Of a stretch of DNA of 64,000 nt, positions 25,161 through 41,807 are shown one piece after another (position 1 is the stretch's first letter; each line of letters begins with the position of its first letter). A program made the position numbers and the translations under genes. This stretch comes from an uncultured Myxococcales bacterium (GTDB lineage Bacteria; Myxococcota_A; UBA9042): assembly GCA_903842345.1 (NCBI GenBank), contig CAIMLR010000039.1, positions 140,268 to 204,267 on the forward strand. Direction: 5' to 3'. The notes beneath the pieces were generated by a model, which was given only the letters and a program-made list of their open reading frames with translations, did not search any database and was not told the origin of the DNA.

Positions 25161-25277
25161 CATCACTTTTCGCTGACCGCTTGCGATACGGGGCAAAACC
25201 GCCAAACTGCTGGGCGCGACCAGCCCGTCCCCCCAGGTGTCGTCAGCCTTAGCCATTCGTTCGCAAGCGAGTCCTTC

Positions 25278-27230
25278 ATGCCTGAAAACGAGATCCGCGG
25301 CGACGCGACGACCCTTGAAATTGACATCGACAAGCTGGTGCGCGACGGCATCCTGAACCGCGACGAAGCCGAAGCGTTGCGCGCGACGGAGTTGGCCGAA
25401 GGCACGCGCATGGAAGCGCTGCCGTCCGGCGATGGCGAGAACAAGGACGCAGTCAAAGAAGCCGCGATGAAGCACAAGCGCCACTGGGTGCGCGTGACGC
25501 GGCTCTGCAACCAGCGCTGTACGTTCTGCCTGGATTCGATGAACCAGGACGGCACGATGATCGACGTCGAGTCGCTCAAAGCCTACATCGCGCTGGGTCG
25601 GCGCATGGGCCGGGAACGGCTCATCCTGTCTGGCGGCGAGGCCAGCGTGCATCCGCAGTACGTGGAGCTGATCCGCTACGGCAAGTCACTCGGCTACGAC
25701 TGGATCCAGACGATCACCAACGGCATGATGTTCAGCTACAAGCGCTTCGCCAACGCGTGCGCGGAAGCCGGCCTGAACGAAGCCACCGTTTCCATGCACG
25801 GCCACACCGCGCACATCCACGACAAGCTGACGGGCACGCCCGGCGCGTTCGTCACCGGCATCAAGGGCATCCAGAACCTGTGGGAGACCGGCAAGGTCGT
25901 CGTCAACATCGACGTGGTCATCAACAAGCAGAACTACAAGCAGCTGCCTGAGATCCTGGAGTATTACTACAACCTCGGCATTCGCGAGTTTGACCTCCTG
26001 CACATCATTCCGTTTGGCCGCGGCTTTGACGAGCACCGCCACTCGCTGTTTTTTGACCTGAACGACGCCGTGCCGTACTTCCGCCGCGCGTTCAAGCTCG
26101 CGGACCGCGAGGGCGTGTACCTGTGGACCAATCGCCTGCCGGTCATGTACCTGGAAGGTTTTGAGCGGCTCATCCAGGACCCGCACAAGCTGCTGAGCGA
26201 ATTTGACGGCGGCCGCCACAATTTTGAAGGCTTCCTGCGCAAGGGCCTCAAGCCCGACTGCTGGGGCGAGCGCTGCGACTACTGCTTCCTCGACGGTCCG
26301 TGCCGCAGCACGATGTTCCCGTACCGGGAAATGCTGGAATCCCACACGTTCCCGCTGGTGCGCGTGGACAGCCAGCACGTCTGGCAGGGCACGGAAGCGA
26401 AAGCCAAGTTTGAAGCGCAGCAGCCGCAGCGGCTGTGGCTGACGGCGCGCGATGCGGAGGATGCCAAGGCGGCGCTGGCGCGTTCGGCGCATCCGGCCGC
26501 AGACGTGACGCTGCAGTTGGACGCGGGCGCGGATCCCCAGCCGCTGCTGAAGCATCCGCCGCGCGAGATCAAGCGCTTTGTGGTGACGACGACCGACGAC
26601 GCGGCACGCTATTTGGTGGGCGCGCATGCGATTCCGGCGCCGACGGAAGTGGAAGTGATGCTGACGCGCGAGCTGGCCTCGTGGCTGCTGGCGCGACCGG
26701 CGACGCTCAAGGCGTGGGGTACGCGGTTGATCGCGACGCTCAAGACGCACGAGTACCTGTCCGAGTCGCAGGCGGAAGATCCGGATCCGGCGACGCTCCG
26801 CAAGTTGGCCCAGGCCGGCCTGCGCATGCGCAACGTGACGCGCTGCGTGGCGGGCGCGGAGACCGAGCCGGGCGACATCAAGCTGCTGGATGCGACGCTG
26901 CTGGACGGCGCGGGCTTCCTCAACCTGGACAAGTACGTCGGCCATTACGTGGAGCACGCGTACTACAGCAAGTCGATCCGCTGCGGCCGGTGCTCGCAGT
27001 TTGAAACCTGCCAGGGCACGCACATCAACTACCTGCGCAGCCACGGTTTTGCGATCCAGACGCCGCTCGATGAAGCCGGCAAGCCGCTGCCCGACGCCGC
27101 GAGCTTTGACCGCTTGACGGAGCAGTTGGCCGACGCCAATGCCCAGCGCACCAAGCGCGAGCAGCAGCGCACGGTCGGGTTGCACAAGCCCAAGGCGATT
27201 GGCGAACTGGGCATCGGCCGCGAGACCTGA
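25278..27230 (+). CDS. Radical SAM enzyme (650 aa) with a roughly 300-aa C-terminal extension carrying two extra CxxCx5C motifs.
   Basis: Canonical CNQRCTFC cluster-binding motif followed by the SAM-binding LILSGGEASVHP motif. Additional CDYCFLDGPC and CGRCSQFETCQG motifs. An alternative start lies at the Met at 25467 (MKHKRHWVRVTRLCN). Confidence 0.8.
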   Translation: MPENEIRGDATTLEIDIDKLVRDGILNRDEAEALRATELAEGTRMEALPSGDGENKDAVKEAAMKHKRHWVRVTRLCNQRCTFCLDSMNQDGTMIDVESLKAYIALGRRMGRERLILSGGEASVHPQYVELIRYGKSLGYDWIQTITNGMMFSYKRFANACAEAGLNEATVSMHGHTAHIHDKLTGTPGAFVTGIKGIQNLWETGKVVVNIDVVINKQNYKQLPEILEYYYNLGIREFDLLHIIPFGRGFDEHRHSLFFDLNDAVPYFRRAFKLADREGVYLWTNRLPVMYLEGFERLIQDPHKLLSEFDGGRHNFEGFLRKGLKPDCWGERCDYCFLDGPCRSTMFPYREMLESHTFPLVRVDSQHVWQGTEAKAKFEAQQPQRLWLTARDAEDAKAALARSAHPAADVTLQLDAGADPQPLLKHPPREIKRFVVTTTDDAARYLVGAHAIPAPTEVEVMLTRELASWLLARPATLKAWGTRLIATLKTHEYLSESQAEDPDPATLRKLAQAGLRMRNVTRCVAGAETEPGDIKLLDATLLDGAGFLNLDKYVGHYVEHAYYSKSIRCGRCSQFETCQGTHINYLRSHGFAIQTPLDEAGKPLPDAASFDRLTEQLADANAQRTKREQQRTVGLHKPKAIGELGIGRET

Positions 27231-27233
27231 CCG

Positions 27234-27668
27234 TTACGGCCAACTGTCGTCGTTGGGCCAATCGGCAAAATACACGCCCGGTGGCCACCCTTGGGCTGGC
27301 ACGCGCTGCTTCAGGCACTTCGCCACGCCTTCAGGCACCTGCACATCGGTCATCGCGAACACGGTCGTCGCCAGCGCGTCGCCCTTGGCCTCGATCGAAA
27401 TACCCAAGCTCATCGGCCTCTCCGTCGGGTAGCCCAAGCCGTGAAAACAGTCCCGCAACGGCCGCAGGTGCGCGCGCGTGAGCGTTTCGTCCATGAGCTG
27501 GGGCGCCGGTTGCGGCGGGCGTTTGGCGGCGACGACGGGCGCCACCGCGTTGGGCTGCGACCCGGTCGGCTCGTTGCGGCACGACGTCAGGACGCTGGTC
27601 ATGGCCAACAGGCACAGCCACACGAACAGGTGCGGCTTGCGGCGGAAACTCGGGCGCGTGGGGAACAT
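27234..27668 (-). CDS. Small putative lipoprotein (144 aa) encoded on the opposite strand inside the rSAM cluster.
   Basis: ATG at 27666-27668 with GGAG 8 nt upstream on the minus strand. Signal peptide plus lipobox (LFVWLCLLAMTSVLTS|C). It exactly fills the 630-nt gap between rSAM1 and rSAM2. Confidence 0.45.
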   Translation of the reverse strand: MFPTRPSFRRKPHLFVWLCLLAMTSVLTSCRNEPTGSQPNAVAPVVAAKRPPQPAPQLMDETLTRAHLRPLRDCFHGLGYPTERPMSLGISIEAKGDALATTVFAMTDVQVPEGVAKCLKQRVPAQGWPPGVYFADWPNDDSWP

Positions 27669-27860
27669 GGGCCAACTCCAGCCAAGTGCGGCTGGAAAAA
27701 GTCTGCGCCTGCGGGCAAGCCAAGGTCAAGATCGCGTGCCGCCGCTCAACACCCACGGCAAAACAGTGAGTTGGCGGACGAAGCGTGCAGTCGGGCAAAA
27801 AATCCGGCACACTGCCGGTTCGCGCCCGTTCCCCCGAACCTGCGCCAACGGAGTCGTTCA

Positions 27861-29129
27861 ATGGCCAACATCGGCTACATCCAGATGGTCCGGCACTGCA
27901 ACCAGAATTGCGGCTTTTGCTCCAATCCTGAGACGCCGTTCTTCCACAACCTGGAGCAGATCCACCAGATCGTCGACGACTTTGTCAGCCGCGACTACTT
28001 TGGCGTCATCATGACCGGCGGCGAGCCGACGCTTTCGCCCATCCTGCCAGAAGCCATCGCCCACGCGCGCGCCAACGGCCTGCACGTGCGCATGATCACC
28101 AATGGCCAGAAGCTCGCCGATTGGGACTACTGCAAGTCGCTGGCCGACGCCGGGCTGCAACACGTCCACGTGTCCATCCACAGCCACAAGCACAAGCTGG
28201 AGGATTTCCTGACCGGCACGCCTGGCTCGCTGGATTGGGCGGAGAAGGCGCTGACCAACCTCGGCAAGACCAACATCACCGTCAACATCAACACGGTCAT
28301 TACCCGCTACAATTGCGACCACTTGCACGGCAACATCGAGTGGTTCATCAAGAACTTCCCGTTCATCCAGCACTTCGTGTGGAACAACCTGGACCCGTCG
28401 ATCGGTCGCGCGACCAGCAACCAGTACTTTGCCGCGCGCCTGCAGGACATTGAAGTCAGCCTGTCCAAGGCGATGCGGATGCTGGCGGAGACGGGTCGGT
28501 CGTTCCGCGTGGAGCGCGTGCCGCTGTGCTACATGACGGAATTCGCCCACTGCTCGACCGAGACGCGCAAGATCGTCAAGAGCGAGGAGCGCATCGTCCA
28601 CTTCCTGGACAACAAGGGCACGGTCCGCCAGACCGAGTGGGGCCACCTGTACGCGGACGTGTGCAACGCGTGCAGCCTGCGGTCCATTTGCGGCGGGCTG
28701 TTTGACCGCGGCAACGCCTACGATCCTGCGGAACTGTCGCCGATCTTCCAGGATCCCAAGCCGATCATCTCGCGCATCGTCCAGGATTTGCAGTCGGACC
28801 CGGCATGGCGGATGGCCAAGTTCAAGAACCTGGCGGCGATCCCGGCGGCGCATCAGGGCAAATCGGGGACGCAGCAGAGCGTCGCGGGCGGTGAAGTGTC
28901 GCGCCCGGGCAAGGTGCAGGCGCCGACTGGCGAACGGCTGACGGAAATGGCCATGGACCCCAAGCGCAAGACCGATCACACGGCGCGCGATTGGACGCCC
29001 GAGGCGGCGGGCTGGCATCCGTCGGACGATGAAGACGACGTGGACACCGGGCTCGTCGTGCCCCCTGAGCCGATCGCGAGCGGACGGGTGCCGGTGACGC
29101 GCCTTGAAGTTCGATCCGGACAAGAGTAG
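27861..29129 (+). CDS. Radical SAM enzyme (422 aa), paralog of rSAM1.
   Basis: ATG at 27861 with GGAG 8 nt upstream. MANIGYIQMVRHCNQNCGFC (CxxxCxxC), VIMTGGEPTLSP, shared SIHSHKHKLEDFLTGTPG block, C-terminal CNACSLRSICGG motif. The longer track ORF from 27291 is upstream read-through. Confidence 0.8.
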   Translation: MANIGYIQMVRHCNQNCGFCSNPETPFFHNLEQIHQIVDDFVSRDYFGVIMTGGEPTLSPILPEAIAHARANGLHVRMITNGQKLADWDYCKSLADAGLQHVHVSIHSHKHKLEDFLTGTPGSLDWAEKALTNLGKTNITVNINTVITRYNCDHLHGNIEWFIKNFPFIQHFVWNNLDPSIGRATSNQYFAARLQDIEVSLSKAMRMLAETGRSFRVERVPLCYMTEFAHCSTETRKIVKSEERIVHFLDNKGTVRQTEWGHLYADVCNACSLRSICGGLFDRGNAYDPAELSPIFQDPKPIISRIVQDLQSDPAWRMAKFKNLAAIPAAHQGKSGTQQSVAGGEVSRPGKVQAPTGERLTEMAMDPKRKTDHTARDWTPEAAGWHPSDDEDDVDTGLVVPPEPIASGRVPVTRLEVRSGQE

Positions 29130-29216
29130 AAGCTGGGGCGCGCGCATTTTCGGCCGACCCCCGCCGAATCAGCGATCGCCCTCCCGCATCCGGGGCATTT
29201 TGCACTACTGGAGTAC

Positions 29217-29663
29217 ATGAGCATGGGCCACCCTCAGATTGAAAAACTCGACCCGAAGACACACACGATGACGCTGTCGCTCGACATCGGCTTGTATCCG
29301 GCTGACGTGCTGTATGCCGCCGCGTACGTCTTCCTCGACCGCGCGTACGTGCTGCTTGACCGCGCCGGTCCGCGCTACGAAGTGCATCTCCGCGGCAAAG
29401 GCGAGCTGACGGAAGCGCAGCTGACGGCGATGTCCGGTGAATTCGAGAACGAGCTGCTCGCTCAGGCGCTGCGTCGCAAGGTCGTCAAGGCCAACCAGAA
29501 GATCATCGAAGACATCACGAGCCAGGCCATTGCGGGCGCGGCCGGCGGCACGCTGCCGACCGACTTCCTCGCGGCGGGCGACGACGGCATGGACTTTCTG
29601 GACGATCCGCTGGGGATCGCCGTGCCGTGGGAAGACAAGTTCAAGAAGAAGAAAGACGCCTGA
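29217..29663 (+). CDS. Small acidic protein (148 aa) with a Lys-rich C-terminal tail (…PWEDKFKKKKDA). Paralog of the next gene. Candidate substrate or accessory protein of the rSAM cluster.
   Basis: ATG with GGAG 5 nt upstream. Its core aligns with the following small protein. No Cys residues. Tail rich in K and aromatic residues. Confidence 0.6.
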   Translation: MSMGHPQIEKLDPKTHTMTLSLDIGLYPADVLYAAAYVFLDRAYVLLDRAGPRYEVHLRGKGELTEAQLTAMSGEFENELLAQALRRKVVKANQKIIEDITSQAIAGAAGGTLPTDFLAAGDDGMDFLDDPLGIAVPWEDKFKKKKDA

Positions 29664-29722
29664 CCCGTCCAACAAATGCCCGCGTTTCCAAACGGTTCGG
29701 ACTTTTCTCAGGAGTTCTTCGC

Positions 29723-29962
29723 ATGAGCCATGTCACACACCAGTCGGTCAAGTTGCACCGCACGCTGTACATGCAGCAGGCGGTGAAGGATGCGGCGACC
29801 ACGTTTGCCGATTTTGCCGCGTTCACCATCAAGCGCGATGGCGACTACTACGCCGTGGACATCAAGGACATTGATCCGGACGTCGACGGCGACGTGGTGG
29901 CCGAGTTCTGCAACTTCGCGCTGGCCAACACGGCCGGTCGCAAGAAAACCAAGAAAGCCTAG
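29723..29962 (+). CDS. Small protein (79 aa), paralog of the previous gene, also ending in a Lys-rich tail (…ANTAGRKKTKKA).
   Basis: ATG at 29723 with AGGAG at 29711-29715. Alignment LYMQQAVKDAATTFADFAAFTIKRDGDYYAVDIKD versus LYPADVLYAAAYVFLDRAYVLLDRAGPRYEVHLRG. The longer track ORF from 29627 overlaps the upstream gene. Confidence 0.55.
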   Translation: MSHVTHQSVKLHRTLYMQQAVKDAATTFADFAAFTIKRDGDYYAVDIKDIDPDVDGDVVAEFCNFALANTAGRKKTKKA

Positions 29963-29992
29963 GCGCGCAAGCAGCCACAGGAGCCAACACGT

Positions 29993-31555
29993 ATGACAGC
30001 GACCACGCTTCAGACCAAAAGCCAGAAGCACGATCTGCTGCCCAAAGGCAAACAGGTTGATCTGACGAAGATTTCCAGCCCCGGCCGCTGGAAGCCTGAG
30101 TTTGCGGTGCCGTTCAACCAGCGGCAGCTCGGCACGAAGATTCTGATTTCCAACGACATGGGCGATTGGGACCTGCTGACGCAGGACGAATTCCGCGACT
30201 TCATCGAGGGCAAGCCGCTGCCGGGCGAGCCGCTGTACGAGAAGCTCAAGGCGCGCAATTTCATCGCCAAGGAAATCAACGTCGCGGAGCAGGCGGAGCG
30301 CTGGAAACGCAAGAAGCAGTACCTGTTCTACGGCCCGACGCTGCACGCGTTTGTGCTGACGCATCGCTGCAACCACGGTTGCCAGTACTGCCACAGCTCG
30401 ATCGTGGGCATGGACCGCAAAGACACGGACATGTCGATCGAGACGGCGGAGCGCGCGGTTGACCTCGTGTTCCAGACGACGAGCCCGGGCATCACCATCG
30501 AGTTCCAGGGCGGCGAGCCGACCGCGAACTGGGAAGTCCTGCAGCACATCGTCGAGTACGCGCGGCAGAAGAACGCGCTGGCCAACAAGGCGCTGTCGTT
30601 CGCCCTGGTGACGAATCTGTCGCTGATGGACGACGAGAAGATGGAGTACCTGCTCGATCGCAAAGTGCAGATCTGCACGAGCCTCGACGGTCCCGCGGAT
30701 TTGCACAACAAGATCCGCATCTTCAAGGACGGCAACAGTCAGGAAACCCTGATGTACTGGATGAAGCGGATCAACGCGCGCTACGGCGAGCTTGGCCTCG
30801 ACACCAACCTGTACCGCGTGGAAGCGCTGCCGACGATCACCAAGCCGAGCCTGCATCGGTGGAAGGAAATCGTCGACACGTACGTGGAAGCCGGCTGCAA
30901 GGCGGTGTTCCTGCGCAAGCTCGACCCGTTCGGATTTGCGGAGCGCACGGCCAAGACGTTGGGCTACTCGATGGACGACTTCCTCGAGTTCTACGCCCAC
31001 GCCGTGGACTACATCATCGAACTGAACCGCAACGGCACGCAGGTGATGGAGCGGCACGCGTCGATCATGCTGAACAAGATCCTCGCGGATCAGGAGCCCA
31101 ACTACCTGGACTTGCGGACGCCCGGTGGCGCGTGCATCGGCCAGCTGGGCTACGCGCCGGACGGCAACGTCTACTCGAGCGATGAAGGCCGCTTCGTCGC
31201 CGCGATGGGCGATGAGATGTTCAAGATCGGCACGGTCGACGACACGTACCACCACCTGATGACCAACGCGCAGACCCGCGCGATGGTGATGGCGGGCTTG
31301 AACGACGCGCAGCCGGATTGCGTGAGCTGCGTGTACAAGCCGTGGTGCGGCCAGCAGGTCGAGTACAACTACAAGACCCAGGGCTCGCTGCACGGCCACA
31401 TGCGGGATTCCGTGTGGTGCAAGAAGCACAAGTCGATCTTCGACTACCTGATGTACAAGCTGGAAAACGCCGACGAGAAGGACATGGAAATGTTCCGCCG
31501 TTGGACGACGAACCGGCAGCTTGAGCACTTCCTGCAGGAACGCGCCCCGCTGTGA
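29993..31555 (+). CDS. Radical SAM/SPASM-domain maturase (anSME-like) with a roughly 110-aa N-terminal extension.
   Basis: GGAG 9 nt upstream of the ATG. HRCNHGCQYC (CxxxCxxC), IEFQGGEPT, and a C-terminal SPASM-like region (GGACIGQLGYAPDGNVYSSDEG … CVSCVYKPWCGQQ … C). The antisense ORF 29708..31873 is rejected. Confidence 0.85.
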   Translation: MTATTLQTKSQKHDLLPKGKQVDLTKISSPGRWKPEFAVPFNQRQLGTKILISNDMGDWDLLTQDEFRDFIEGKPLPGEPLYEKLKARNFIAKEINVAEQAERWKRKKQYLFYGPTLHAFVLTHRCNHGCQYCHSSIVGMDRKDTDMSIETAERAVDLVFQTTSPGITIEFQGGEPTANWEVLQHIVEYARQKNALANKALSFALVTNLSLMDDEKMEYLLDRKVQICTSLDGPADLHNKIRIFKDGNSQETLMYWMKRINARYGELGLDTNLYRVEALPTITKPSLHRWKEIVDTYVEAGCKAVFLRKLDPFGFAERTAKTLGYSMDDFLEFYAHAVDYIIELNRNGTQVMERHASIMLNKILADQEPNYLDLRTPGGACIGQLGYAPDGNVYSSDEGRFVAAMGDEMFKIGTVDDTYHHLMTNAQTRAMVMAGLNDAQPDCVSCVYKPWCGQQVEYNYKTQGSLHGHMRDSVWCKKHKSIFDYLMYKLENADEKDMEMFRRWTTNRQLEHFLQERAPL

Positions 31556-32841: not shown

Positions 32842-32889
32842 ACTTCGCGCGCTGGCACAGATGTGTCACACTCGGCGCGGAGGTGTCCT

Positions 32890-34206
32890 GTGGCTTATCG
32901 CGCTGTTGAGATCATTGCCCGCAAACGGGACGGCCACGTGCTGGACGGCGACGAGATCCGCTGGCTCATCGCCGGATTCACCGACGGCAGCGTGCCCGAC
33001 TACCAAATGGCGGCATTTGCCATGGCCGTCTACTGGCGCGGCATGACGCCGCAGGAGACCGCCGCGCTCCTGGACGCGATGGAACGCTCGGGCGACGTCG
33101 TGCGCTGGCCGAACCTGCCATGGCCGACCGCGGACAAGCACTCGACCGGCGGCGTGGGCGACAAAGTGTCGATTCCGCTCGCCCCCGCCGTGGCCGCATG
33201 CGGCGTCGCGGTGCCGATGATTTCCGGCCGCGGCCTGGGCCATACCGGCGGGACGCTCGACAAGCTGGAGTCCATTCCGGGCTTCAACGTGCGCCTCGAC
33301 CTCGCGGCGTTTGACGCGATGGTGCGGCAAATCGGTGTCAGCCTGATTGGCCAAACGGATCGCCTCGTGCCGGCCGACAAGAAGCTCTACGCGCTGCGCG
33401 ACGTGACCGCGACGGTGGAGAGCATTCCGCTGATCACGGCGTCGATCCTGTCCAAGAAGCTGGCGGAGGGCGTGGGCGCGCTCGTGATGGACGTGAAGGT
33501 CGGCTCCGGCGCGTTCATGAAGAATCGCGAGGCGGCGCTGGCGCTGGCGCAATCGCTCGTCGGTGCCGGAACGGCCGCGGGTCGCAAGGTGACGGCGTTC
33601 CTGACCGCGATGGATCGGCCGCTGGGCACGCACATCGGCAACGCGCTGGAGATCGTCGAGTCCATCGAGATCCTGCGCGGCGGCGGTCCGGCGGATACGC
33701 GCGCGCTGACGGTGCGCCTGGGCGGTGAAATGCTGCGGCTGTGCGGCGTGGCGGCGACGCTGGAAGCGGGCGAGGCGCAAATTGCCGCGGCGCTTGACGA
33801 TGGGCGGGCGCTGGCGAAATTCCGCGAACTCGTGGCCGCGCACGGTGGCGACCCGCGCGTGTGCGATGCGCCCGAGGACGTGCTGCCCAAGGCGCCGTTT
33901 GTCGCGCCGCTGCTGGCGTGGCAGGACGGCATCGTGCAGCAGATGGACGCGTGGCTGATCGGCGTGGCGGCGGTGCACCTCGGCGCGGGTCGCAATACCG
34001 CCGCAGATGCCGTGGATCCAGCGGTCGGCTTTGTGCTGGCCAAAAAGCCCGGTGATGCCGTGCGCGCGGGCGATCCGCTCGTGTACGTGCATGCGCGCAC
34101 GCCGGCGCAGCGGGACACGGCGCTTGAACAACTGCGCGCGGCGATTGCCATCGACAAAGGCGCGCCGACGCTGATGCCGCTTTGGCTGGACGTCGTCACG
34201 GCGTAG
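32890..34206 (+). CDS. deoA: Thymidine phosphorylase / pyrimidine-nucleoside phosphorylase.
   Basis: KHSTGGVGDKVS, GHTGGTLDKLESIPGF, and an LIGQT motif. GTG at 32890 preceded by GGAGG; the longer ORF starts at GTG 32863. Confidence 0.85.
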   Translation: MAYRAVEIIARKRDGHVLDGDEIRWLIAGFTDGSVPDYQMAAFAMAVYWRGMTPQETAALLDAMERSGDVVRWPNLPWPTADKHSTGGVGDKVSIPLAPAVAACGVAVPMISGRGLGHTGGTLDKLESIPGFNVRLDLAAFDAMVRQIGVSLIGQTDRLVPADKKLYALRDVTATVESIPLITASILSKKLAEGVGALVMDVKVGSGAFMKNREAALALAQSLVGAGTAAGRKVTAFLTAMDRPLGTHIGNALEIVESIEILRGGGPADTRALTVRLGGEMLRLCGVAATLEAGEAQIAAALDDGRALAKFRELVAAHGGDPRVCDAPEDVLPKAPFVAPLLAWQDGIVQQMDAWLIGVAAVHLGAGRNTAADAVDPAVGFVLAKKPGDAVRAGDPLVYVHARTPAQRDTALEQLRAAIAIDKGAPTLMPLWLDVVTA

Positions 34207-34218
34207 GAGGGGGCACGC

Positions 34219-35358
34219 ATGTCTGAAATCAAGCCCTACATCAGCGGCACAGCCATGGCGATCACGGAGCTGCCCGAGCGCATGCAGCCGTTCCTCGCCG
34301 CGACTTCACCCGTCGCGACCCGGCTCCGCGCGGCAGGTGGCGCGCTGCCGCTCACGCCCGATCAGCTGGTGCCCGTGCTGCTCTTCCTGAGTCAGGACGA
34401 GGACGAGATGGTCCGCAAGAAAGCCGCCACCGCGCTGCAGGAGATGCCGCCCGACCTCGTGCATCCGGTGCTGACGCACCTCCGGTCGGCCGCCGCGCTC
34501 GATGCCGCCGCGCGCGTCTTTCACAAGCACGACCGGGTCGCGCGCGAACTGGCGATGCACAACACCATTGCCGACGATACCGTGCGCTGGCTGGCCGGCA
34601 CGGCGTCAGCGGAAGTCTGTGAAGCGATTGGCCGCAACCAGGTGCGCGCGCTGCGCTCCCCGGCGATCATCGAGGCGCTCTGGCTCAATCCGCGCGCTGC
34701 ACAAGGCGTCGTGCAGAACCTGCTTGAACTCGGCGTGCGCCAGAACCTGCCACTGGAACACATCTCGGGCTTTCGCGAGATGAAGGCGATCCTGTCAGGC
34801 GAGGACGCCGACGCGCCGCACGAGAAGGGTCTGAATGACAACGAATTCGCCCTGGCGATGGCGTGGGCGACGCAGAGCTACGAGCGCGAACACGGCTCGA
34901 CGACGCAGGCGCTGACGCCGGAGGAAGCCAAGACCGAGGACGACAAGACGTCGACGCTGCAGTCGCTCATCACCAAGATGTCGGTGTCGCAGAAAGTGCG
35001 GCTGGCGATGGTGGGCGACGCCAACGTGCGCAAGCTGCTGATCCGCGATCCCAAGAAGCTCGTGGCGCTCGCGGTGCTGCGTTCGCCGCGCGTGACGGAG
35101 GGCGAGATCACCAACTTTGCCGCCAACAAGACGCTGTCGGAAGAGCTGTTGACGACGATCTGCCGCAACCGCAACTGGGTCAAGGACTACGCCACGCGCA
35201 AGGCGCTGGTGTTCAACCCCAAGACGCCGCTGGCGTTTTCGATGACGTTCCTGCGCCAGCTCTCGCCCAAGGATTTGAAGGACGCGTCAGGCAGCCGGGA
35301 CGTCAATCAGACCGTCGCGCGCACCGCCAAGCGGATGATTTCTGAGCGACAGGGCTAG
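34219..35358 (+). CDS. Hypothetical alpha-helical (HEAT/ARM-like repeat) protein.
   Basis: No catalytic motif seen. Repeated helical LxxLLxxxDxxVR-like segments. 13-nt gap from deoA suggests co-transcription. Confidence 0.45.
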   Translation: MSEIKPYISGTAMAITELPERMQPFLAATSPVATRLRAAGGALPLTPDQLVPVLLFLSQDEDEMVRKKAATALQEMPPDLVHPVLTHLRSAAALDAAARVFHKHDRVARELAMHNTIADDTVRWLAGTASAEVCEAIGRNQVRALRSPAIIEALWLNPRAAQGVVQNLLELGVRQNLPLEHISGFREMKAILSGEDADAPHEKGLNDNEFALAMAWATQSYEREHGSTTQALTPEEAKTEDDKTSTLQSLITKMSVSQKVRLAMVGDANVRKLLIRDPKKLVALAVLRSPRVTEGEITNFAANKTLSEELLTTICRNRNWVKDYATRKALVFNPKTPLAFSMTFLRQLSPKDLKDASGSRDVNQTVARTAKRMISERQG

Positions 35359-35361
35359 TTC

Positions 35362-36999
35362 TCAGTTCCTGTCCAGCTCGCCAGCCGTCACCGCTTCCAG
35401 GATCACGTCGGAAAGCAGCGCGGTTTCGCCGCACGCCGCCTTGTCGTCCGCCTTGAAGGGCTTGCCATCCAGGCACTGGCGATCGCCAAACTGCAGCGGC
35501 AGATAGCTGCTGCCGCCGCGCGCGAGGTAATCCAGCGTCGCGATCGTGTACTTCATGGTCGGCACCAGCGGCTGCCCGCCGACCGTGATGTCCTGGGCGC
35601 GCTCGCCGCGCAGTTCAATCGCGACCGGCTTGTTGTCGACGTATTTGTAGCGCGCCGCCGTCCGCGCCACGTCGCACCGCATCTGCACGCCCCAGACGAT
35701 GCTGTTGGCGCCATGCTCCTGGTTCTGCGCGTGCCCGCAGGCGTGTTCCAGCACGTCGCGCAGGTGCTCACCGGTCAACGTCACCAACACCACGCGGTTG
35801 CGGAACGGGTGAATCGCCGAAACTTCCAGGTTCGTGACCAGTCCCGGCGGATAGATCGTGTGGCTGCGGAAGCCGCCGGTATTCAACAAGCCGCCGTCGA
35901 CGTGGTGCTTGCTGATGCGTTCGGCGTACTGCGCCACCGCCCGCGTGGCGCGAACGGCATACTGCGAATGCGCAATGTCCATCACGTCCCAGGCAAATTC
36001 GCGCTTGCCGATGACCTTCTCCGGCACCAGTTCGGCCAGCAGCTTGTCCGTCTGGGCGACGATAGCCGCGTCCGGCGCGTGCTGCTGCGGCATCTCCAGC
36101 GCGTAGGTCGTCGCGTCGGCCAGATGGCCCGCCGCGTCCACCGCCAGGTCGATCCGTCCCAGCCGCTCAAAACGCGCGCCCGTCTGGGTGATCCACGTCG
36201 GACCCACGCGGATCGCGTGTTCCAGCTTGGTGTGGGAATGGCCGCCGACGATCACGTCGATGCCCGACACGTCCACGGCCAGCTGCTTGTCGTCGTCCAC
36301 GCCGAGGTGGGACAGCAGGACGATGGTCTCCGCACCCTGCTGCCGCAGCCCGGCGATCGCCGCCTTGGCGCTCTCCTCCAGTGGCTTGAGCTTGACGTCG
36401 CCGAGATCGGAGATCGTCCGCGTGCTCGGCGTCAGCAGGCCAAACAGGCCGATCTTGATGCCGCCGCAATCGGCGATCGCCGTCGCGCCAAACAGGCCAT
36501 CGGCGTGACCCGGCTCCGCTGGCTCAAGCGCGGTTCCAGCGCCATCGACGTTGGCCGCCAGCAACCGGAACTGGTGCAAACCCTGCAGTGCGCGCCGCAC
36601 AACTTTCGGGCCATTGTCGAACTCGTGATTGCCGAGCGCGCCAAAATCGTAGCCCGCCGCCTCGTAGACCGGCCAGTTGTCCGCCGCCGCCCGCGCGCGA
36701 TCGCCGTCCTGCCGTTCCAGGAACCGGCCCTGCAGCATGTCCCCGCCTTCCAGCAGCAGCACGCCGCCCGGGTGCGCCAACAGCGCTGCCTTCTTGGCCG
36801 CAGCGATGCGGGCCAGCGGATACGTGTAGGTCAGCTTGCCATCGGCCCCGCGCACGGCGCCGTCAAAGTTGGACTCGCTGTCATTGGTCGTGAGCAACAG
36901 GCAGCGCCGTACGGCCGGCGCAGTCGACGCCGCGGCCGGCACTTGGGGCGCGCTGCACGCCAGCGGGAACAAGACGAGAAACAGCCAAGCATGTCGCAT
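35362..36999 (-). CDS. Bifunctional metallophosphatase / 5'-nucleotidase (UshA-like) lipoprotein.
   Basis: Lipobox LFPLAC|S. Calcineurin-like motifs (LLLEGGDMLQG, GNHEFD, GGHSHT) plus a 5'-nucleotidase C-terminal domain. Confidence 0.75.
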   Translation of the reverse strand: MRHAWLFLVLFPLACSAPQVPAAASTAPAVRRCLLLTTNDSESNFDGAVRGADGKLTYTYPLARIAAAKKAALLAHPGGVLLLEGGDMLQGRFLERQDGDRARAAADNWPVYEAAGYDFGALGNHEFDNGPKVVRRALQGLHQFRLLAANVDGAGTALEPAEPGHADGLFGATAIADCGGIKIGLFGLLTPSTRTISDLGDVKLKPLEESAKAAIAGLRQQGAETIVLLSHLGVDDDKQLAVDVSGIDVIVGGHSHTKLEHAIRVGPTWITQTGARFERLGRIDLAVDAAGHLADATTYALEMPQQHAPDAAIVAQTDKLLAELVPEKVIGKREFAWDVMDIAHSQYAVRATRAVAQYAERISKHHVDGGLLNTGGFRSHTIYPPGLVTNLEVSAIHPFRNRVVLVTLTGEHLRDVLEHACGHAQNQEHGANSIVWGVQMRCDVARTAARYKYVDNKPVAIELRGERAQDITVGGQPLVPTMKYTIATLDYLARGGSSYLPLQFGDRQCLDGKPFKADDKAACGETALLSDVILEAVTAGELDRN

Positions 37000-37002
37000 G
37001 AA

Positions 37003-37704
37003 TTACCCTTTTTGCCGCGCTTCTGGACCGAGTCCAGCCTTCTTGCGGGCCTCCAACAGCCGCGCCAGGTCGGCGGCGGGCAGCGTCGTCAGGCGGCCAA
37101 TCTGCATCGCGCGCAGCTGGATCGCCGCGAGGTGCTCCAGCAGTTCAGCGCGCAGGTACGCCTGCTCCAGATCGTCGCCCCATGCCAGCACGCCGTGATT
37201 GCCAAGCGTCAGCGCGTCAAACTTCAGCGCGGCCTGGGTCAGCTGGCCAATCTGCTCAGCGCTCTGCGGAAACGCATACGGCAGCAGCGGAATCTCCACG
37301 CCCAGGGAGACCACGGCTTCCGCCAGCATCCGCGGCTCGATCGCCACGCCCGCCACCGCCAGCGCGGTCGCGTTGGGCGCGTGCGTGTGCACAACCGCGC
37401 GCACGTCCGGCCGCGCCGCGTACACCGCCCGGTGCAGCTTCAGTTCAGAAAACGCCTTGCGCCCGCCTTGCAGCACGCGGTCGCGGGCGTCCAGCACAAT
37501 CAGGTCGCTCTCCGTCAGCACGCGCTTGGACAGCGCGGTCGGCGTCGCCAGCAGGTGCTCCCCGGGCAGCCGCAGGGTCACATTGCCGTCGTGATTGGCC
37601 ACCCAGCCGCGCGCATGGAGCTCCTGGGCGATTGCCAGCAGTTGCCGACGGGCCTGCGCCAGCGTCGGTTCACCCAGATGCAGCCGGTGCAGGGTCGTCG
37701 CCAT
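37003..37704 (-). CDS. Class II aldolase/adducin-family protein (FucA/MtnB-like).
   Basis: Motifs ANHDGNVTLRL, HTHAPNATALA, LGNHGVLAWG, the zinc-binding His pattern of class II aldolases. Its start overlaps the stop of the upstream BMC-P gene. Confidence 0.75.
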   Translation of the reverse strand: MATTLHRLHLGEPTLAQARRQLLAIAQELHARGWVANHDGNVTLRLPGEHLLATPTALSKRVLTESDLIVLDARDRVLQGGRKAFSELKLHRAVYAARPDVRAVVHTHAPNATALAVAGVAIEPRMLAEAVVSLGVEIPLLPYAFPQSAEQIGQLTQAALKFDALTLGNHGVLAWGDDLEQAYLRAELLEHLAAIQLRAMQIGRLTTLPAADLARLLEARKKAGLGPEARQKG

Positions 37705-37976
37705 CAGTCGATCGTTGAAACGGCGTCGACGACGCCGACGATCAGGCAGCGGACGGGCGATTTGCTGTCGCCGAGCAGTTGGCGGATGCCGTTGCCTTCG
37801 CGGAGGATGACGACCGTGTCCCCGGGGCCAGCTTGCGCGTGATCGACGGCGAGGAAGCTGTCGCCGGAGTCGCTGCCGTCGGCCTCAATCGGCTGCACGA
37901 CAAAGAGCGGCAGGCCGCGCAAGCTGGGATGCTTGACGGTCGCGACGACGCTGCCGAGGACGCGCGCGAGGATCAC
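37704..37976 (-). CDS. Bacterial microcompartment vertex (pentamer) protein, EutN/CcmL/PduN family (BMC-P).
   Basis: [29 protein letters not shown]…[16 protein letters not shown]…GDSKSPVRC matches the EutN pattern (VIGSVVSTQKHPSL…LLLVQ…AVD…GAG…VL…GS). Confidence 0.85.
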
Positions 37977-38302
37977 TTTGCGCTCCGTGCAGCCGTCTTG
38001 GGCGCGGCGGTCTTGGGCGCAGCCGCTTTGGGGCGCGCAGGCACGTCGATTTGATCAACGATGGCGATGATCGCCGCGTCGACTGGCACAAACGGATCGG
38101 GCATCGCCAGCGCCGCTTCACGCGACGTCGTCAGGTGCACGCAATCGCCGGGGCCCGCTTGGGTCGTGTCGGCCGCGCAAAATGGCTTGCCGCGGTCGGC
38201 GCCATGCTCGTCAATCGGCTGCACCATCAGGAGGCGAATACCCTCCAGCCCCGGCGTTTTCCGGGTGGCGACGACATTGCCGATGACGCGCGCAAGCAGC
38301 AT
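37973..38302 (-). CDS. Second BMC vertex protein (EutN/CcmL family) with an Ala/Pro/Lys-rich C-terminal tail.
   Basis: From the Met at 38302: [60 protein letters not shown]…. The ORF extends to 38356. Overlaps the downstream BMC-P start by 4 nt. Confidence 0.75.
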
Positions 38303-38364
38303 AGGCACACTGTCGCACGCGCGCGGGCTGTCGACAAGACCTTGCCCCCGCCGCAAAGGACCGC

Positions 38365-39508
38365 GATGCTACAGCGTGAAGACATTCATCAGGAAATTCA
38401 GGATCTGCAGGAGAGGCTGCCGCCGCCGCAGCGCCGGGGTCGGCTGGTGCCGTATCGGCGGCGGGGCGTGATGGCGATTCCGGCATTCAAGATGCGCGCG
38501 GGCGGCGATCCGGCGACCGACGGCCGCGCGCAGTCGTGGAAGTTGCTGCACAAAGCGACGCAGACGGCGGCGGATTGCTTTTTCTACGACCTGGAGGACG
38601 CAGCGCCAGACCATCCCGAGTTCAAGGCGTACGCCCGGCAGTTTTGCGCGGAGGCGTTGCAGCAGTTCGATTTTGCCCAGCGCATCGTGGCGTTCCGGCC
38701 CAATGACGTGCGGTCGCGCTATTTTGAGGACGATTTGGTCGACGTGCTGACGGCGGCGGGTCACAGGCTCCATGCGCTTGTCATCGCCAAGACGGAGGAT
38801 GCCGACGAAATCGCGGCGATCGCCCGGCTGGTGGCGCAGATCCAGCGGCATGCCGGCCACGACAATCGGCCGATGCTGGAAGTGCTGATCGAGAGCCCGC
38901 GGGCTTTTGCCCAGGCGCAGCAGATCGCGGCGATTCCGAGCGTGGCGTCGCTGACGTTTGGCGCGTGGGATTTTGCCCGGATGGTCGGCGGGGAAGTGCG
39001 CGCCCAGTCGTGGACGGCGGATCTGGCGGCGGTGCGGCAGCTGCTGCCGGTGATCGCTGCAAGCGAAGGCAAGGACGCGGTGGACGCGGTGACCGCCATG
39101 CTGCCGATCCGGCCGACGGGACAGCCGGGGACGCCCGAGCACAGCGCACAGGTGCAGGCGCGCGCGGAGGCGCTGGCGCTGGCGGCGCGTGACGCCGAAA
39201 ACGCCAAGGTGCTGGGCTTCGCCGGCAAGTGGGTGCTGCACCCGGATCAAGTAGCGCCGATTCAGGACGCGTGGCTGCCGACGCGGGCGCGCGCGCTGGC
39301 GGCGCTGACGCTGGCGGTGCAGTACGCGCGGGCCGCCCAGACGGGCTCTGGCGCCGAGTTGACCGGGACGCAGCTCGCCGATCGCGCGGTGATCGGCGCG
39401 GATTGGTGGCTCGTCGAAAATGCCCTTACAGGCGGCGTGCTGACGGCGGCGGAATGTGAGGCGCCAGGCGTCGCGTTGGCGGCGCTGCGGGCGATCGCGG
39501 GCGCGTGA
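38365..39508 (+). CDS. HpcH/HpaI aldolase / citrate-lyase beta (CitE)-like protein, divergent from the BMC-P pair.
   Basis: FFYDLEDAAPDHPEFKAYAR (equivalent to the LDLEDAV motif) and GFAGKWVLHPDQV (equivalent to a CitE-like GxxGKxxIHP motif). Start ambiguous (ATG 38365, 38472 or 38490). The track ORF from 38051 overlaps the BMC-P genes and is too long. Confidence 0.65.
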
Positions 39509-39511
39509 GTC

Positions 39512-40348
39512 CTACAGTCCGCACAACGACGGCGCACACTTGGCCGAGTTGGCGTTGCAGGCGAAACCGACGGCGCATTCGTTGTCGGCCTTGCAGGTGA
39601 CCCCGGACTTGCCGCCGCCGTCCCACGGCTCGCAGGCAAAACCGGAGCTGCACTTGAAGCCCTGGGCGCAGGCGTCGGAGAGTTCGCACGTGCTGTTGCG
39701 CTTGCCGCAGACGGTGGCGCGGGTCACCTTGGTGTTCAGGCAGTCCAGGTCAATGCTGCACGGCTTGCCCAGGTTGCAGCCATCGCCGTCCGCGCCGGCC
39801 TTGCGGCACGCATAGCTGTCCGTCGTGACGGGATCACAGCGCCCGCCAAAACTGTCGCACGCGATGGGCGCCGTTGCGGTGCAGGTGTCGCCCTTGGACG
39901 CGCTGTCCAGCCACGCCAGCAGGCATTGCCGGCGTGCGGCCTGGATTCCCAGGTAGTCGCAACCCGTCGCCGCGGCATTCAGGGCGGCGTGGCACGCCTT
40001 GCCGCGCGTCGCATCCAGCTTGACCACGCCCGCCGCGCTGGCGTCGTCAATGCCGGCAAAGCCGACCTTCAGGCACGCCGCCGTCTCGTTGGCGACGCAA
40101 TCCGCGCTGGTCCCGGCCTGACAGCAGGCCATGGCCGTGATGCAAACCTGCGATGCAATGTCCGCGCACATCTGCGCGGCCGGGCTGAGTTGCACCGCAA
40201 CGTCGGCACCGGTATCCAGCGGACCCGCCGCGTCAAAGCCGGCATCCGCGGGGGCGACATCCGCCGCAGCGTCGATCGCCGCCTCCGTCGCCGCCTTGGA
40301 TCCGCACGCCGCAAGCAGCGCAAGCGCCAGGAACAATCGCTTCGTCAT
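39512..40348 (-). CDS. Cys-rich secreted lipoprotein, hypothetical.
   Basis: Lipobox LALALLAA|CGS. 30+ Cys in 278 aa in short C-x-C-type modules. No enzymatic motif. Confidence 0.55.
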   Translation of the reverse strand: MTKRLFLALALLAACGSKAATEAAIDAAADVAPADAGFDAAGPLDTGADVAVQLSPAAQMCADIASQVCITAMACCQAGTSADCVANETAACLKVGFAGIDDASAAGVVKLDATRGKACHAALNAAATGCDYLGIQAARRQCLLAWLDSASKGDTCTATAPIACDSFGGRCDPVTTDSYACRKAGADGDGCNLGKPCSIDLDCLNTKVTRATVCGKRNSTCELSDACAQGFKCSSGFACEPWDGGGKSGVTCKADNECAVGFACNANSAKCAPSLCGL

Positions 40349-40361
40349 CGTCGCCTCGTCG

Positions 40362-40865
40362 CTAGATTTTGCCGCCGTTGGTGATCCAGCGCTGGGTGAA
40401 ATCGGCCGCCTGCTGGTAGCTCTTTTCCACGTCGGCGATGATGCCCTTCTCGATCAAGCTGTTGATCATGAAGTTGACCGAGACGCTGACGCTGCCATCG
40501 ACGCGCCGCACCACGGCGTTGCCGTCCTGGCGAAACGAAAACGTGCCGTTGGACGCGATCTTGTCGGGCATGATGCCGGAGATGGTCTTCCAGGTGCCGC
40601 GGAAACTGCCGAACGTGTAGTCGCAGTGCTCCACGTAGACGATCTTGCTGCTGCCAATCACCTTGGCTGCGGGCGCGGGCAGCTCGCGATCCGGGCTGAC
40701 GCGCACCTGGCGATGGAGTTTCTCGCCCTGATGGTCCAGCTTGACCAACGTGCGCTCCAGCTTGACGGTCTGGCACAGCGCCTCGTTGAAGGCCTCGTCA
40801 AAATAGAGCTTCTCATAGTCCGCGAGCGTGATGCCGGAGAACCGGTGTTCGACCTGAAATTGCAT
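40362..40865 (-). CDS. Hypothetical protein (SRPBCC/DUF2505-like fold suspected).
   Basis: 167-aa ORF tightly packed with its neighbours. Family assignment is from overall resemblance only. Confidence 0.45.
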   Translation of the reverse strand: MQFQVEHRFSGITLADYEKLYFDEAFNEALCQTVKLERTLVKLDHQGEKLHRQVRVSPDRELPAPAAKVIGSSKIVYVEHCDYTFGSFRGTWKTISGIMPDKIASNGTFSFRQDGNAVVRRVDGSVSVSVNFMINSLIEKGIIADVEKSYQQAADFTQRWITNGGKI

Positions 40866-40883
40866 GCTTTCCTCCAGAAGGTG

Positions 40884-41807
40884 TCAGTTGGGCGGTTCGG
40901 CTTCGCGCACTTCCAAGTGCAATTCGGCCTGCAGGCCATCGGCGGTGCGTTGGATCTCCAGCGCCATGGGAACTTGGCCCGGGCCGCACGCGTGGACGAA
41001 GGGCCGGATCCCCTCGGCATTGGTGCCGCATGCCGTCGCGGCGGCCGTCCGCAGCGCTTCGCTGGGGTCGTGGATCAGCACGCTGAGCTGCGCGAGGCCC
41101 TCCGGCAGCAGCCACGCGGAGACCGCCAGCGGCGCTTCGAGTTCGCGCAGGATCGCCCGCCGCAGCGGCTCCGGCAGCGTCTGCGCGCCCAGCGTCTCAA
41201 ACAGGATGAGCGTCGCCGCCAACTGCTCGTGGGCCATGCCGTCGGGCAGCGGCAACGTCAAATCCGTGTACGGCGCCGCGGCGTTGACCGATCGGCGCAG
41301 GCCAAGGCAATGGTCAATGCCGCGTTCGGCCGCCCACTGCAGCAGCGCGTCCAGCGCGTCGCTCGGCGGCAGCAGGCCGAGGACGTCTTTCAGGTGCATC
41401 GGCGAGGGCAGGAACCAGCCGCCATCCACGCCCTGCGGGCCGATCTCCAGCCACGAACCCAGCACGACCGGGTCGAGCGTGGCAAGCGCTTCATCCAGCG
41501 CCGCAAGCTCGCTCGGCGCACCGCCCGCCAGCGACAGGAACGCGCGGGTCGATTGCGCCATCCGCAGCGTCGCGCCCGCCGCCCGCAGCGTCAGGCGTTT
41601 CTGATCCAGCGTCACGCTCGCCGCCAGCGCCATGTCCGGCCACTGGCCCATGAGCGGCGCCGGCAGCGCTTTGAGCCACACGTTGATGGCCTCACGCTCT
41701 GCGGACGAATGCCCGGGCAGCAGCGCGATGGCGTTCAGGAGTTCTTGGCGGGGATCGTCGGGTTGCAGCATGGGGTCCGAAGCATAGCGGTCATGCGGGA
41801 TTCGCAA
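40884..41807 (-). CDS. Hypothetical protein.
   Basis: 307-aa ORF. Its start overlaps the batA-like gene's stop. No recognizable motifs. Confidence 0.4.
   Translation of the reverse strand: MRIPHDRYASDPMLQPDDPRQELLNAIALLPGHSSAEREAINVWLKALPAPLMGQWPDMALAASVTLDQKRLTLRAAGATLRMAQSTRAFLSLAGGAPSELAALDEALATLDPVVLGSWLEIGPQGVDGGWFLPSPMHLKDVLGLLPPSDALDALLQWAAERGIDHCLGLRRSVNAAAPYTDLTLPLPDGMAHEQLAATLILFETLGAQTLPEPLRRAILRELEAPLAVSAWLLPEGLAQLSVLIHDPSEALRTAAATACGTNAEGIRPFVHACGPGQVPMALEIQRTADGLQAELHLEVREAEPPN

Follow-up and report, generated by a model that had tools for sequence, protein, structure and literature searches.

The region is very probably a type I HO-type (Haliangium ochraceum-type) bacterial microcompartment (BMC) satellite locus of an uncultured freshwater Myxococcota bacterium, where the main shell would be encoded elsewhere and the neighbouring lyase gene is most likely unrelated. 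The definition of the type I HO satellite was taken from the accessible parts of the catalogue of Sutter et al. (2021, Nat Commun 12:3809, PMC8217296) and its Supplementary Data 2. Like the satellites defined there, the locus consists of two contiguous BMC-P genes followed by a PF00596 aldolase gene, it has no BMC-H gene, and it lies far from BMC-H/T genes. Both BMC-P genes are triplet-specific paralogs that are distinct from the BMC-P of main loci in a neighbour-joining (NJ) tree, where they fall into two clades apart from the Hoch_5814-type vertex protein. The host is also of the expected group (Deltaproteobacteria/Myxococcota), as its nearest genomes are MAGs from uncultured Myxococcales and Myxococcota.

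In the parts of the catalogue that were available, the PF00596 aldolase is located on the satellite in 24 of the 30 type I loci, and the arrangement of two BMC-P genes and an aldolase gene (P-P-aldolase), which is neither new nor unusual, is already recorded in myxobacteria (Sutter et al., 2021, PMC8217296). Split BMC-P genes have also been reported in H. ochraceum (Axen et al., 2014). An earlier note on this DNA had proposed a satellite microcompartment locus with vertex paralogs coupled to an aldolase, which is borne out by the orthology to BMC-P 2 and 3 of HO loci. Its statement that H. ochraceum carries BMC-P genes away from the main shell locus agrees with the literature. The Hoch_4425/4426 tags that it named for that pair are not mentioned in the accessible supplements of Sutter et al. 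or in the literature that was searched.

The coordinates of the features are shown in Table 1. The window is the whole stretch of DNA that was analysed (64 kb).

Table 1. Features of the satellite locus and its neighbours, with positions in the window.
Feature	Position	Strand	Description
BMC-P paralog, A-type (operon gene 1)	37973..38302	-	109 aa; PF03319 EutN_CcmL, E=3.9e-26 (Pfam)
BMC-P paralog, B-type	37704..37976	-	90 aa; PF03319, E=5.2e-25 (Pfam)
Class II (FucA/MtnB-like) aldolase	37003..37704	-	233 aa; PF00596 Aldolase_II, E=6.9e-46 (Pfam)
UshA-type 5'-nucleotidase/phosphoesterase	35362..36999	-	545 aa; 5_nucleotid_C and Metallophos (Pfam)
Divergent HpcH/CitE-family lyase	38366..39508	+	380 aa; PF03328 HpcH_HpaI, E=4.8e-18, 65.7 bits (Pfam)
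Predicted sigma-70-like promoter of the BMC-P operon	38309..38337	-	putative; motif identified by eye

The genes on the minus strand are tightly packed. The stop codon of the A-type gene (TGA) and the start codon of the B-type gene (GTG) share a 4-nt overlap, GTGA, at 37973-37976. The stop codon of the B-type gene and the ATG of the aldolase gene overlap by 1 nt in TGATG (37706-37702). The earlier note had described the first junction as the same 4-nt overlap and the second as a BMC-P gene abutting the aldolase start at 37704, and both descriptions hold. The A-type gene starts at the ATG at 38302 and not at the TTG of a 127-aa ORF. The lyase gene is divergent as had been described, although its ATG is at 38366 instead of 38365, and it shares a 63-bp region with the BMC-P operon. 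Independent gene calls on 18 metagenome contigs recovered the same two BMC-P genes, aldolase gene, and lyase gene. The co-directional cluster extends past the aldolase gene to the 5'-nucleotidase gene, which begins after a 3-nt gap. The tblastn searches with PduA, CcmK2, EutM, and HO-type BMC-H and BMC-T queries identified no BMC-H or BMC-T gene in the 64-kb window, as the earlier note had stated, and the search with an HO-type AldDh query identified no aldehyde dehydrogenase gene there. The Rfam search of 30-45 kb gave only two matches, both at chance level.

The two BMC-P genes encode paralogous proteins that are predicted to be vertex pentamers. Both proteins cover the PF03319 profile in full (positions 1-83 of 83), and their scores of 88.2 and 91.8 bits are well above the gathering cut-off of 25. 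The closest PDB match of the A-type protein is the HO shell BMC-P 5V74 (E=3e-12), and the PDB matches of the B-type protein are CcmL 4N8X and the HO BMC-P 5V74. The E values of the window proteins against the solved pentamers (5V74, CcmL 4N8X/2QW7, and EutN 2HD3) range from 3e-12 to 1e-8. The A-type protein consists of a EutN/CcmL domain and a 22-residue Pro/Ala/Lys-rich C-terminal tail that differs among relatives.

The conserved motifs of 5V74 are reportedly a Lys near position 15, a GAGxGE loop, and an I(V/I)D motif. In our alignment, K15, the AG.G core, and VD are common to all three BMC-P clades. Both window proteins have QAGPGD in place of GAGVGE and lack the C-terminal GGxVxYDKS strand, and the position of the GSSARQ loop is occupied by SREAAL in the A-type protein and EGNGIRQ in the B-type protein. 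These departures agree with the consensus of the clade to which each protein belongs. The dN/dS values are 0.08-0.28 for the A-type gene and 0.14-0.30 for the B-type gene. Purifying selection acts on both genes.

The NJ tree was constructed from 209 BMC-P domains, including Hoch_5814 (5V74), and it exhibits three clean clades. Clade A consists of the A-type gene of the window, all first-gene copies from satellites, and the second-gene copies from type II loci. Clade B consists of the B-type gene of the window, all second-gene copies from satellites, and the third-gene copies from type II loci. The third clade consists of Hoch_5814 (5V74), the copies from type I main loci, and the first gene of type II loci. 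In complete HO-type loci, the orthologs of the P-P-aldolase genes of the window are the second and third BMC-P genes of the triplet and the aldolase gene.

To identify relatives of the locus, one genome per species was scanned. The 80 loci obtained carry for the most part a Myxococcota or Myxococcales label, and the closest match is an uncultured Myxococcales MAG (98% identity). The order of A-type BMC-P, B-type BMC-P, and aldolase is kept in about 69 of these 80 loci. About 20 loci carry the three genes within full T-H-P-AldDh-T-P-P-aldolase loci, which were recognised by Pfam in L065 and by gene calls in L091-L109, and type I main loci that lack P-P-aldolase were also found. The AldDh genes of main loci have N-terminal amphipathic helices. 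The downstream neighbours in the 62 loci surveyed are heterogeneous outside the group that carries the 5'-nucleotidase. An upstream gene in L019, L021, L028-L030, and L033-L037 has a conserved helical C-terminus resembling an encapsulation peptide (EP); this candidate was rejected, as the gene product looks by eye like a TPR-type repeat protein, and the gene has no homolog in the window.

The residues H106, H108, H170, and E87 of the aldolase are invariant in alignment A2. The residues that align with the Zn ligands and catalytic Glu of FucA are conserved (VVHNHA/VVHTHA, SEW/SEL, and HHG), where the first two Zn ligands were placed by motif, with VVHNHA aligned with VVHTHA. We take the FucA counterparts of E87, H106, H108, and H170 to be residues 73, 92, 94, and 155. 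The aldolase scores at best 85-102 bits in NCBIfam, where the cut-offs are 137-300. It therefore reaches no equivalog cut-off, thus no substrate class (such as FucA, RhaD, AraD, MtnB, or Ru1P aldolase) can be given to the enzyme. The aldolase has no terminal EP and ends at the family core, so its encapsulation stays a proposal. Its distant homologs P0221 and P0223 do have a C-terminal helix. The window aldolase resembles in this respect about two thirds of HO aldolases, which lack an EP according to the accessible parts of the catalogue (Sutter et al., 2021, PMC8217296).

The divergent gene most likely encodes a malyl-CoA/beta-methylmalyl-CoA-lyase-type enzyme that serves central metabolism and is only a neighbour of the BMC module. 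The profile of its family matches the malyl-CoA lyases 4L9Y (E=8e-37) and 5UGR (E=5e-32) in PDB, whereas the scores against NCBIfam equivalogs are just 50-64 bits with cut-offs of 375-500. The lyase shares the HpcH/CitE fold with these Mcl1 enzymes of the ethylmalonyl-CoA pathway, and the Glu/Asp residues of the ExE/ESP and GxxD motifs are invariant at the expected metal-binding positions. Like Mcl1, relatives of the lyase in three phyla sit with pathway genes. The homologs with 50-52% identity are located in operons with acyl-CoA dehydrogenase (methylsuccinyl-CoA-dehydrogenase-like), mesaconyl-CoA hydratase, and B12 mutase genes, and two of the three contexts also have MeaB. These operons (L007, L008/L009, and L121) belong to Myxococcales, a marine contig, and Bacteroidota, and they are without BMC genes. 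Unlike Mcl1, the window lyase has about 60 extra N-terminal residues and stands apart from the partner genes of the ethylmalonyl-CoA pathway, which are absent from the window around it.

The earlier note had placed the lyase in the module as a co-regulated gene, and a stronger form of this reading would have it controlled through the 63-bp divergent region and maybe acting as a cargo or signature enzyme that releases glyoxylate or another aldehyde. The divergent layout and short intergenic region are kept in the window and L010-L014, and malyl-CoA-type lyases are enzymes that release glyoxylate, which is an aldehyde. However, we consider this reading unlikely. The lyase adjoins BMC-P only in the closest relatives, L010-L014 (aldolase at least 87% and lyase at least 73% identical), and in the other approximately 65 P-P-aldolase loci no copy of the lyase occurs within 10 kb. 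The homologs in ethylmalonyl-CoA-pathway-like operons without BMC genes also argue against it. The N-terminus of the lyase, EDIHQEIQDLQERL with a Pro/Arg linker, was considered as an EP and rejected, as the whole segment is conserved in the family with invariant G25, P29, Y30, R32, and R33. The N-terminal 60 residues are conserved family-wide, including in non-BMC contexts, thus the extension is not a BMC targeting peptide. In addition, the accessible main text of the BMC catalogue contains none of PF03328, pfam03328, HpcH, and 'citrate lyase', and its accessible supplements contain none of the first three. The lyase is not a conserved part of the module, and its inclusion there by the earlier note is not supported.

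The locus would instead be an orphan remnant if the shell locus had been lost in the clade, leaving the BMC-P pair and aldolase in a shell-independent role or in decay. This reading is favoured by the lack of BMC-H/T within 25-37 kb on either side, and by the six BMC-H clusters examined (P0320, P0285, P0245, P0243, P0312, and P0316), among which the main shell locus of the organism was not found; these clusters belong to other organisms, with type II loci in four cases and type I loci in two. It is nevertheless very unlikely, since both BMC-P ORFs are intact and in agreement with their clade consensus, with dN/dS of 0.08-0.30. The A-type protein is 93-95% identical in the core matched by tblastn and 90-93% identical in full length across the closest MAGs, and its identity is at least that of the aldolase in L012-L014 but not in L011. 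A type I main locus (L124/L125) was found in the same sequencing run that yielded the MAG ERR2206756_bin.84, which carries the window-like satellite L029. Catalogued satellites also accompany a main locus by definition, as stated in the accessible parts of the catalogue (Sutter et al., 2021, PMC8217296).

Compared with other known systems, the three window genes have orthologs in the same order in the type II HO main loci L065, L091, L099, L104, and L106, and in the type II loci L091-L103 the genes either adjoin directly or share 1 nt or 4 nt. In type II loci the three genes form one run with BMC-T, BMC-H, a third BMC-P, and AldDh genes, whereas the window genes stand alone. The PVM, GRM5, and ACI metabolosomes have an aldolase of the same Pfam family, and the logic proposed for the window is the same, where a ketose-1-phosphate is split into DHAP and an aldehyde that is then oxidised by AldDh. 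Unlike those systems, the window aldolase has no EP, and the shell composition and taxa differ. A satellite of another triplet-bearing type (ACI, FRAG, or SPU) is hardly credible. The accessible catalogue does record BMC-P triplets and PF00596 aldolases in ACI loci and paired BMC-P clades in FRAG and SPU loci, but it restricts ACI to Acidobacteria with an aldolase that has a C-terminal EP, the relatives of the window are mostly labelled Myxococcota or Myxococcales, and the complete loci with all three orthologs have the HO shell and enzyme set that match the accessible part of Supplementary Data 2.

The assignment to the type I HO satellites leaves some features by which the locus differs from those catalogued. 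The window's clade has a secreted 5'-nucleotidase gene after the aldolase gene, and this gene faces convergent genes for a HEAT-repeat protein and a thymidine phosphorylase. The CitE-like lyase gene is divergently upstream, and the A-type BMC-P has the Pro/Ala/Lys-rich tail. There is no mention of these neighbours or of the tail in the accessible parts of the catalogue (Sutter et al., 2021, PMC8217296).

Under the HO satellite reading, the shell would be built by a main locus elsewhere that encodes BMC-T, BMC-H, a Hoch_5814-type BMC-P, AldDh, and a second BMC-T, where the aldehyde dehydrogenase would have an N-terminal EP. The aldolase would act on a phosphorylated ketose to give DHAP and a short aldehyde, and the encapsulated aldehyde dehydrogenase would oxidise the aldehyde. 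A leaderless sigma-70-type promoter and translational coupling would ensure that the two extra pentamer paralogs are expressed together with the aldolase, and the operon would run on into a secreted 5'-nucleotidase in the window's clade. As the earlier note had supposed, the locus may tune a metabolosome encoded elsewhere in the genome.

The putative promoter has a -35 element TTGTCG (38337-38332), a 17-nt spacer, and a -10 element GACAGT (38314-38309). A similar pattern, TTGnnn-N17-TGnCAnnnT, was identified by eye 6-9 nt before the first BMC-P ATG in about 15 related satellites. The -10 element is only 6 nt before the A-type ATG, which suggests a leaderless mRNA. The scan for the strict sigma-70 consensus found no promoter in 35.0-39.8 kb, and the terminator scan of the same interval found a single terminator-like site that is outside the operon.

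The secreted 5'-nucleotidase is probably encoded by the fourth gene of the BMC-P operon. The protein has an N-terminal signal sequence, and its NCBIfam matches to UshA, NadN, and SoxB are all under the cut-off. The sequence scan found no terminator-like site between the aldolase and 5'-nucleotidase genes, and the 5'-nucleotidase gene has the same position in about 23 loci of L010-L037, where the aldolase is 58-98% identical. It is conceivable, though improbable, that in this freshwater clade the HO satellite operon, which would lie back-to-back with a thymidine phosphorylase operon, has recruited the 5'-nucleotidase gene. This would tie the aldolase, as the aldehyde-releasing signature enzyme, to the catabolism of pentose or deoxypentose phosphates that derive from nucleotides. 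This nucleotide reading agrees with the guess of nucleic acid catabolism for HO in the accessible parts of the catalogue (Sutter et al., 2021, PMC8217296).

As one more example of a catalogued locus type in an uncultured myxobacterium, the locus matters little in itself. The findings confirm on independent data that P-P-aldolase is a mobile block that occurs either joined to the HO shell operon or separate from it, and the CitE-like neighbour should be left out of the BMC content. The HO compartment is in wide use as an engineering chassis. If the link to nucleotide breakdown is true, it would be the first genomic clue that connects the aldolase of this 'enigmatic' compartment to nucleotide-derived sugar phosphates, and the clade-wide operonic tie to the 5'-nucleotidase could steer experiments on the substrate of the HO compartment.

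The window locus is most probably a further example of the catalogued type I satellite of Haliangium ochraceum-type (HO) bacterial microcompartments (BMCs), and the class is not new. The unit of two EutN/CcmL vertex proteins (BMC-P) and a class II aldolase (P-P-aldolase) has already been described in the BMC catalogue (Sutter et al., 2021; PMC8217296). Supplementary Data 2 of the catalogue lists 41 HO loci, for the most part from Deltaproteobacteria. The type I main locus there consists only of shell proteins and aldehyde dehydrogenase (AldDh), 24 of 30 type I loci have their PF00596 aldolase on the satellite, and the BMC-P triplet is divided between main and satellite loci. The window locus showed the type I HO satellite features in the tests that were run, which covered the window and its relatives. 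The earlier note had read the BMC-P pair and aldolase as a satellite BMC locus, which is borne out by the catalogue match, the gene order, and the paralog tree.

The three genes and a 5'-nucleotidase gene lie head to tail and probably form a four-gene operon (see table). The A-type and B-type BMC-P genes overlap at GTGA and the B-type and aldolase genes overlap at TGATG, so the overlaps noted earlier are correct, and they fit with translational coupling of the three genes. The gene boundaries are identical in the gene calls of 18 independent metagenome contigs with the identical 90-aa protein. The search of the 64-kb window found no BMC-type AldDh and, as the earlier note had stated, no BMC-H or BMC-T shell genes. 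The remaining window genes are housekeeping or otherwise unrelated genes.

Features of the window and operons that carry lyase homologs
Feature	Length	Coordinates	Strand	Remark
EutN/CcmL protein (A-type BMC-P)	109 aa	38302-37973	-	Pfam E=3.9e-26
EutN/CcmL protein (B-type BMC-P)	90 aa	37976-37704	-	Pfam E=5.2e-25
Class II aldolase	233 aa	37704-37003	-	Pfam E=6.9e-46
5'-nucleotidase-family protein	545 aa	36999-35362	-	Hydrophobic signal sequence; 3-nt gap after aldolase
Thymidine phosphorylase and HEAT-repeat genes		32863-35358	+	Converge on 5'-nucleotidase (35362-36999, -); 3-nt gap
HpcH/CitE-family gene	380 aa	Start 38366	+	63 bp from first BMC-P start
Lyase-homolog operon, L007		10001-17297		
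Lyase-homolog operon, L008		8775-17111		
Lyase-homolog operon, L121		6828-13845		

Elsewhere in the window, a single 4,635-aa ORF (5335-19242, minus strand) with 28 Cu-binding_MopE motifs (PF11617, E=1e-204) resembles a giant repeat protein. Four to five consecutive radical SAM genes (24207-31555, plus strand) precede the thymidine phosphorylase gene at a short distance. This run includes an HxsD-like gene in the gene calls of locus L001 and could be a His-Xaa-Ser-type peptide-modification cluster.

The relatives were scanned using the aldolase alignment A2 as query with one genome per species. The scan recovered 80 loci, most of which bear a Myxococcota or Myxococcales label, and the closest is from an uncultured Myxococcales lake MAG (98% identity). 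The tblastn map exhibits the order BMC-P(A), BMC-P(B), aldolase in about 69 of them. The trio lies behind BMC-H and a BMC-P similar to Hoch_5814, the H. ochraceum vertex protein of known structure, in several loci including L062, L065, L072, L074, L080, and L084; in the contig-truncated L071, only the Hoch_5814-like gene of that pair is visible ahead of the trio. The Pfam gene order of L065 is BMC-T, BMC-H, BMC-P, Aldedh, BMC-T, BMC-P, BMC-P, rhomboid, aldolase. Complete loci with the trio were also recovered from four BMC-H clusters. Several MAG records with Myxococcota-type loci (L015, L017, L019, L028, L033, L042, L062, L067, L071, and L084) bear Klebsiella pneumoniae, 'uncultured Enterobacteriaceae', or 'Enterobacterales' titles, almost certainly through taxonomic mislabelling.

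Two BMC-H clusters yielded type I main loci (T-H-P-AldDh-T, without P-P-aldolase). One of these loci stems from run ERR2206756, whose MAG bin.84 carries a window-like P-P-aldolase-nucleotidase satellite (L029) of compatible GC content; this is a same-sample co-occurrence in a relative only. Next to the type I main loci in L110-L116, L118, and L119, on their downstream side (~6686-8270), are genes for a DUF4442 protein and a protein with an FGE-sulfatase domain. If DUF4442 has a hotdog, thioesterase-like fold, it could replace the missing phosphotransacylase in CoA recycling. In L091 and L099-L103, the type II main loci are immediately preceded by the secY-adk-map-rpmJ-rpsM-rpsK-rpoA-rplQ cluster and an MFS transporter gene, which is an unusual setting for the operon of a catabolic organelle. 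MopE/FG-GAP proteins flank several type II loci (L091-L094).

The neighbour-joining tree of 209 BMC-P domains drawn from all loci exhibits three clean clades. Clade 1 consists of all satellite gene 1 and all type II gene 2 proteins, including the window 109-aa protein. Clade 2 consists of all satellite gene 2 and all type II gene 3 proteins, including the window 90-aa protein. Clade 3 consists of type I main-locus BMC-P, type II gene 1, and Hoch_5814, whose structure is solved. The window thus carries the two triplet-specific paralogs, and the canonical Hoch_5814-type paralog is expected elsewhere than in the window. By clade consensus, satellite and canonical proteins share K15, AG.G, and VD. 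Both satellite paralogs have QAGPGD where the canonical protein has GAGVGE, a replaced GSSARQ loop, and no C-terminal GGxVxYDKS strand. The A-type protein frequently has a variable, basic, low-complexity C-terminal tail, which is 22 residues in the window (37973-38038) and also present in L011, L016, L017, L019, L023, L028, and L032-L037. Both window BMC-P genes are under purifying selection (dN/dS 0.08-0.30 against relatives).

The window aldolase conserves the three zinc-binding histidines and catalytic glutamate of FucA. It scores 85-102 bits against the epimerase, OtnC, MtnB, Ru1P-aldolase, and FucA models and approaches no NCBIfam equivalog cut-off, so its substrate class is not assignable from these models. 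The window protein terminates at the family core, whereas two distant homologs have a long linker and a terminal amphipathic helix. It thus belongs to the majority without an encapsulation peptide; it may be located inside the compartment.

The divergent CitE/HpcH-like lyase had also been placed in the BMC module, which the gene contexts do not support. Only the closest relatives of the window, L010-L014, have the lyase within 10 kb of P-P-aldolase, and its homologs occupy non-BMC contexts, so the adjacency is read as lineage-specific synteny. Homologs with 50-52% identity are found in operons of a Myxococcales MAG, a marine contig, and a Bacteroidota MAG. Their partners are a ~530-550-aa Mcd-like acyl-CoA dehydrogenase, mesaconyl-CoA hydratase, and a fused B12 mutase, with MeaB (L007 and L008) and a Ccr-like reductase (L008 and L121) each in two of the three. 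This content is an ethylmalonyl-CoA-pathway-like gene set, and no such partner genes were found in the 64-kb window. A further homolog stands alone. No BMC genes were found in the three operons or around the solitary homolog. The nearest solved relatives of the lyase are L-malyl-CoA/beta-methylmalyl-CoA lyases. Its N-terminal extension (~60 residues) was rejected as a targeting helix because it is conserved across the whole family.

No NCBIfam equivalog represents the ~410-aa HpcH/DUF6986 lyase family of Myxococcota, a marine lineage, and Bacteroidota (L007, L008, and L121), which appears to be a divergent beta-methylmalyl/malyl-CoA lyase acting in an ethylmalonyl-CoA-type pathway. Three genes lie beyond the window lyase (39512-41807, minus strand): they encode a DUF2505 protein and, with no Pfam match, a putative lipoprotein rich in Cys (278 aa) and a protein of 307 aa. 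The DUF2505 gene accompanies the lyase in L011-L014, and the lipoprotein gene in three of these, being undetected in L012.

In about 15 satellites, the first BMC-P gene is preceded by a TTGnnn-N17-TGnCAnnnT motif, recognised by eye, that ends 6-9 nt before the ATG. The window copy reads TTGTCG-N17-GACAGT, with 6 nt between it and the ATG. This motif suggests a sigma-70-type promoter with a leaderless transcript, which would account for the 63-bp divergent region. A strict-consensus promoter scan and an Rfam search around the operon found nothing.

Within L010-L037, about 23 loci (58-98% aldolase identity) have the 5'-nucleotidase gene after the aldolase gene. Most of these also have the convergent HEAT-repeat gene, and the nearest ones thymidine phosphorylase. 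The HEAT/nucleotidase pair adjoining the satellite is kept in L011-L014 and L028-L037 (except L031 and L034), and downstream neighbours are heterogeneous outside the L010-L037 clade. The catalogue suggests nucleic-acid catabolism for HO compartments (PMC8217296). The nucleotidase link would agree with this suggestion, as a lead rather than a finding, because the nucleotidase is exported and the link is limited to one clade.

A limited literature search found no functional study of an HO compartment, and the reason that triplet-bearing compartments retain two extra pentamer paralogs was stated as unknown in 2024 (PMC11585597). The questions of the compartment substrate and the extra pentamers are general to the class and not specific to the window.
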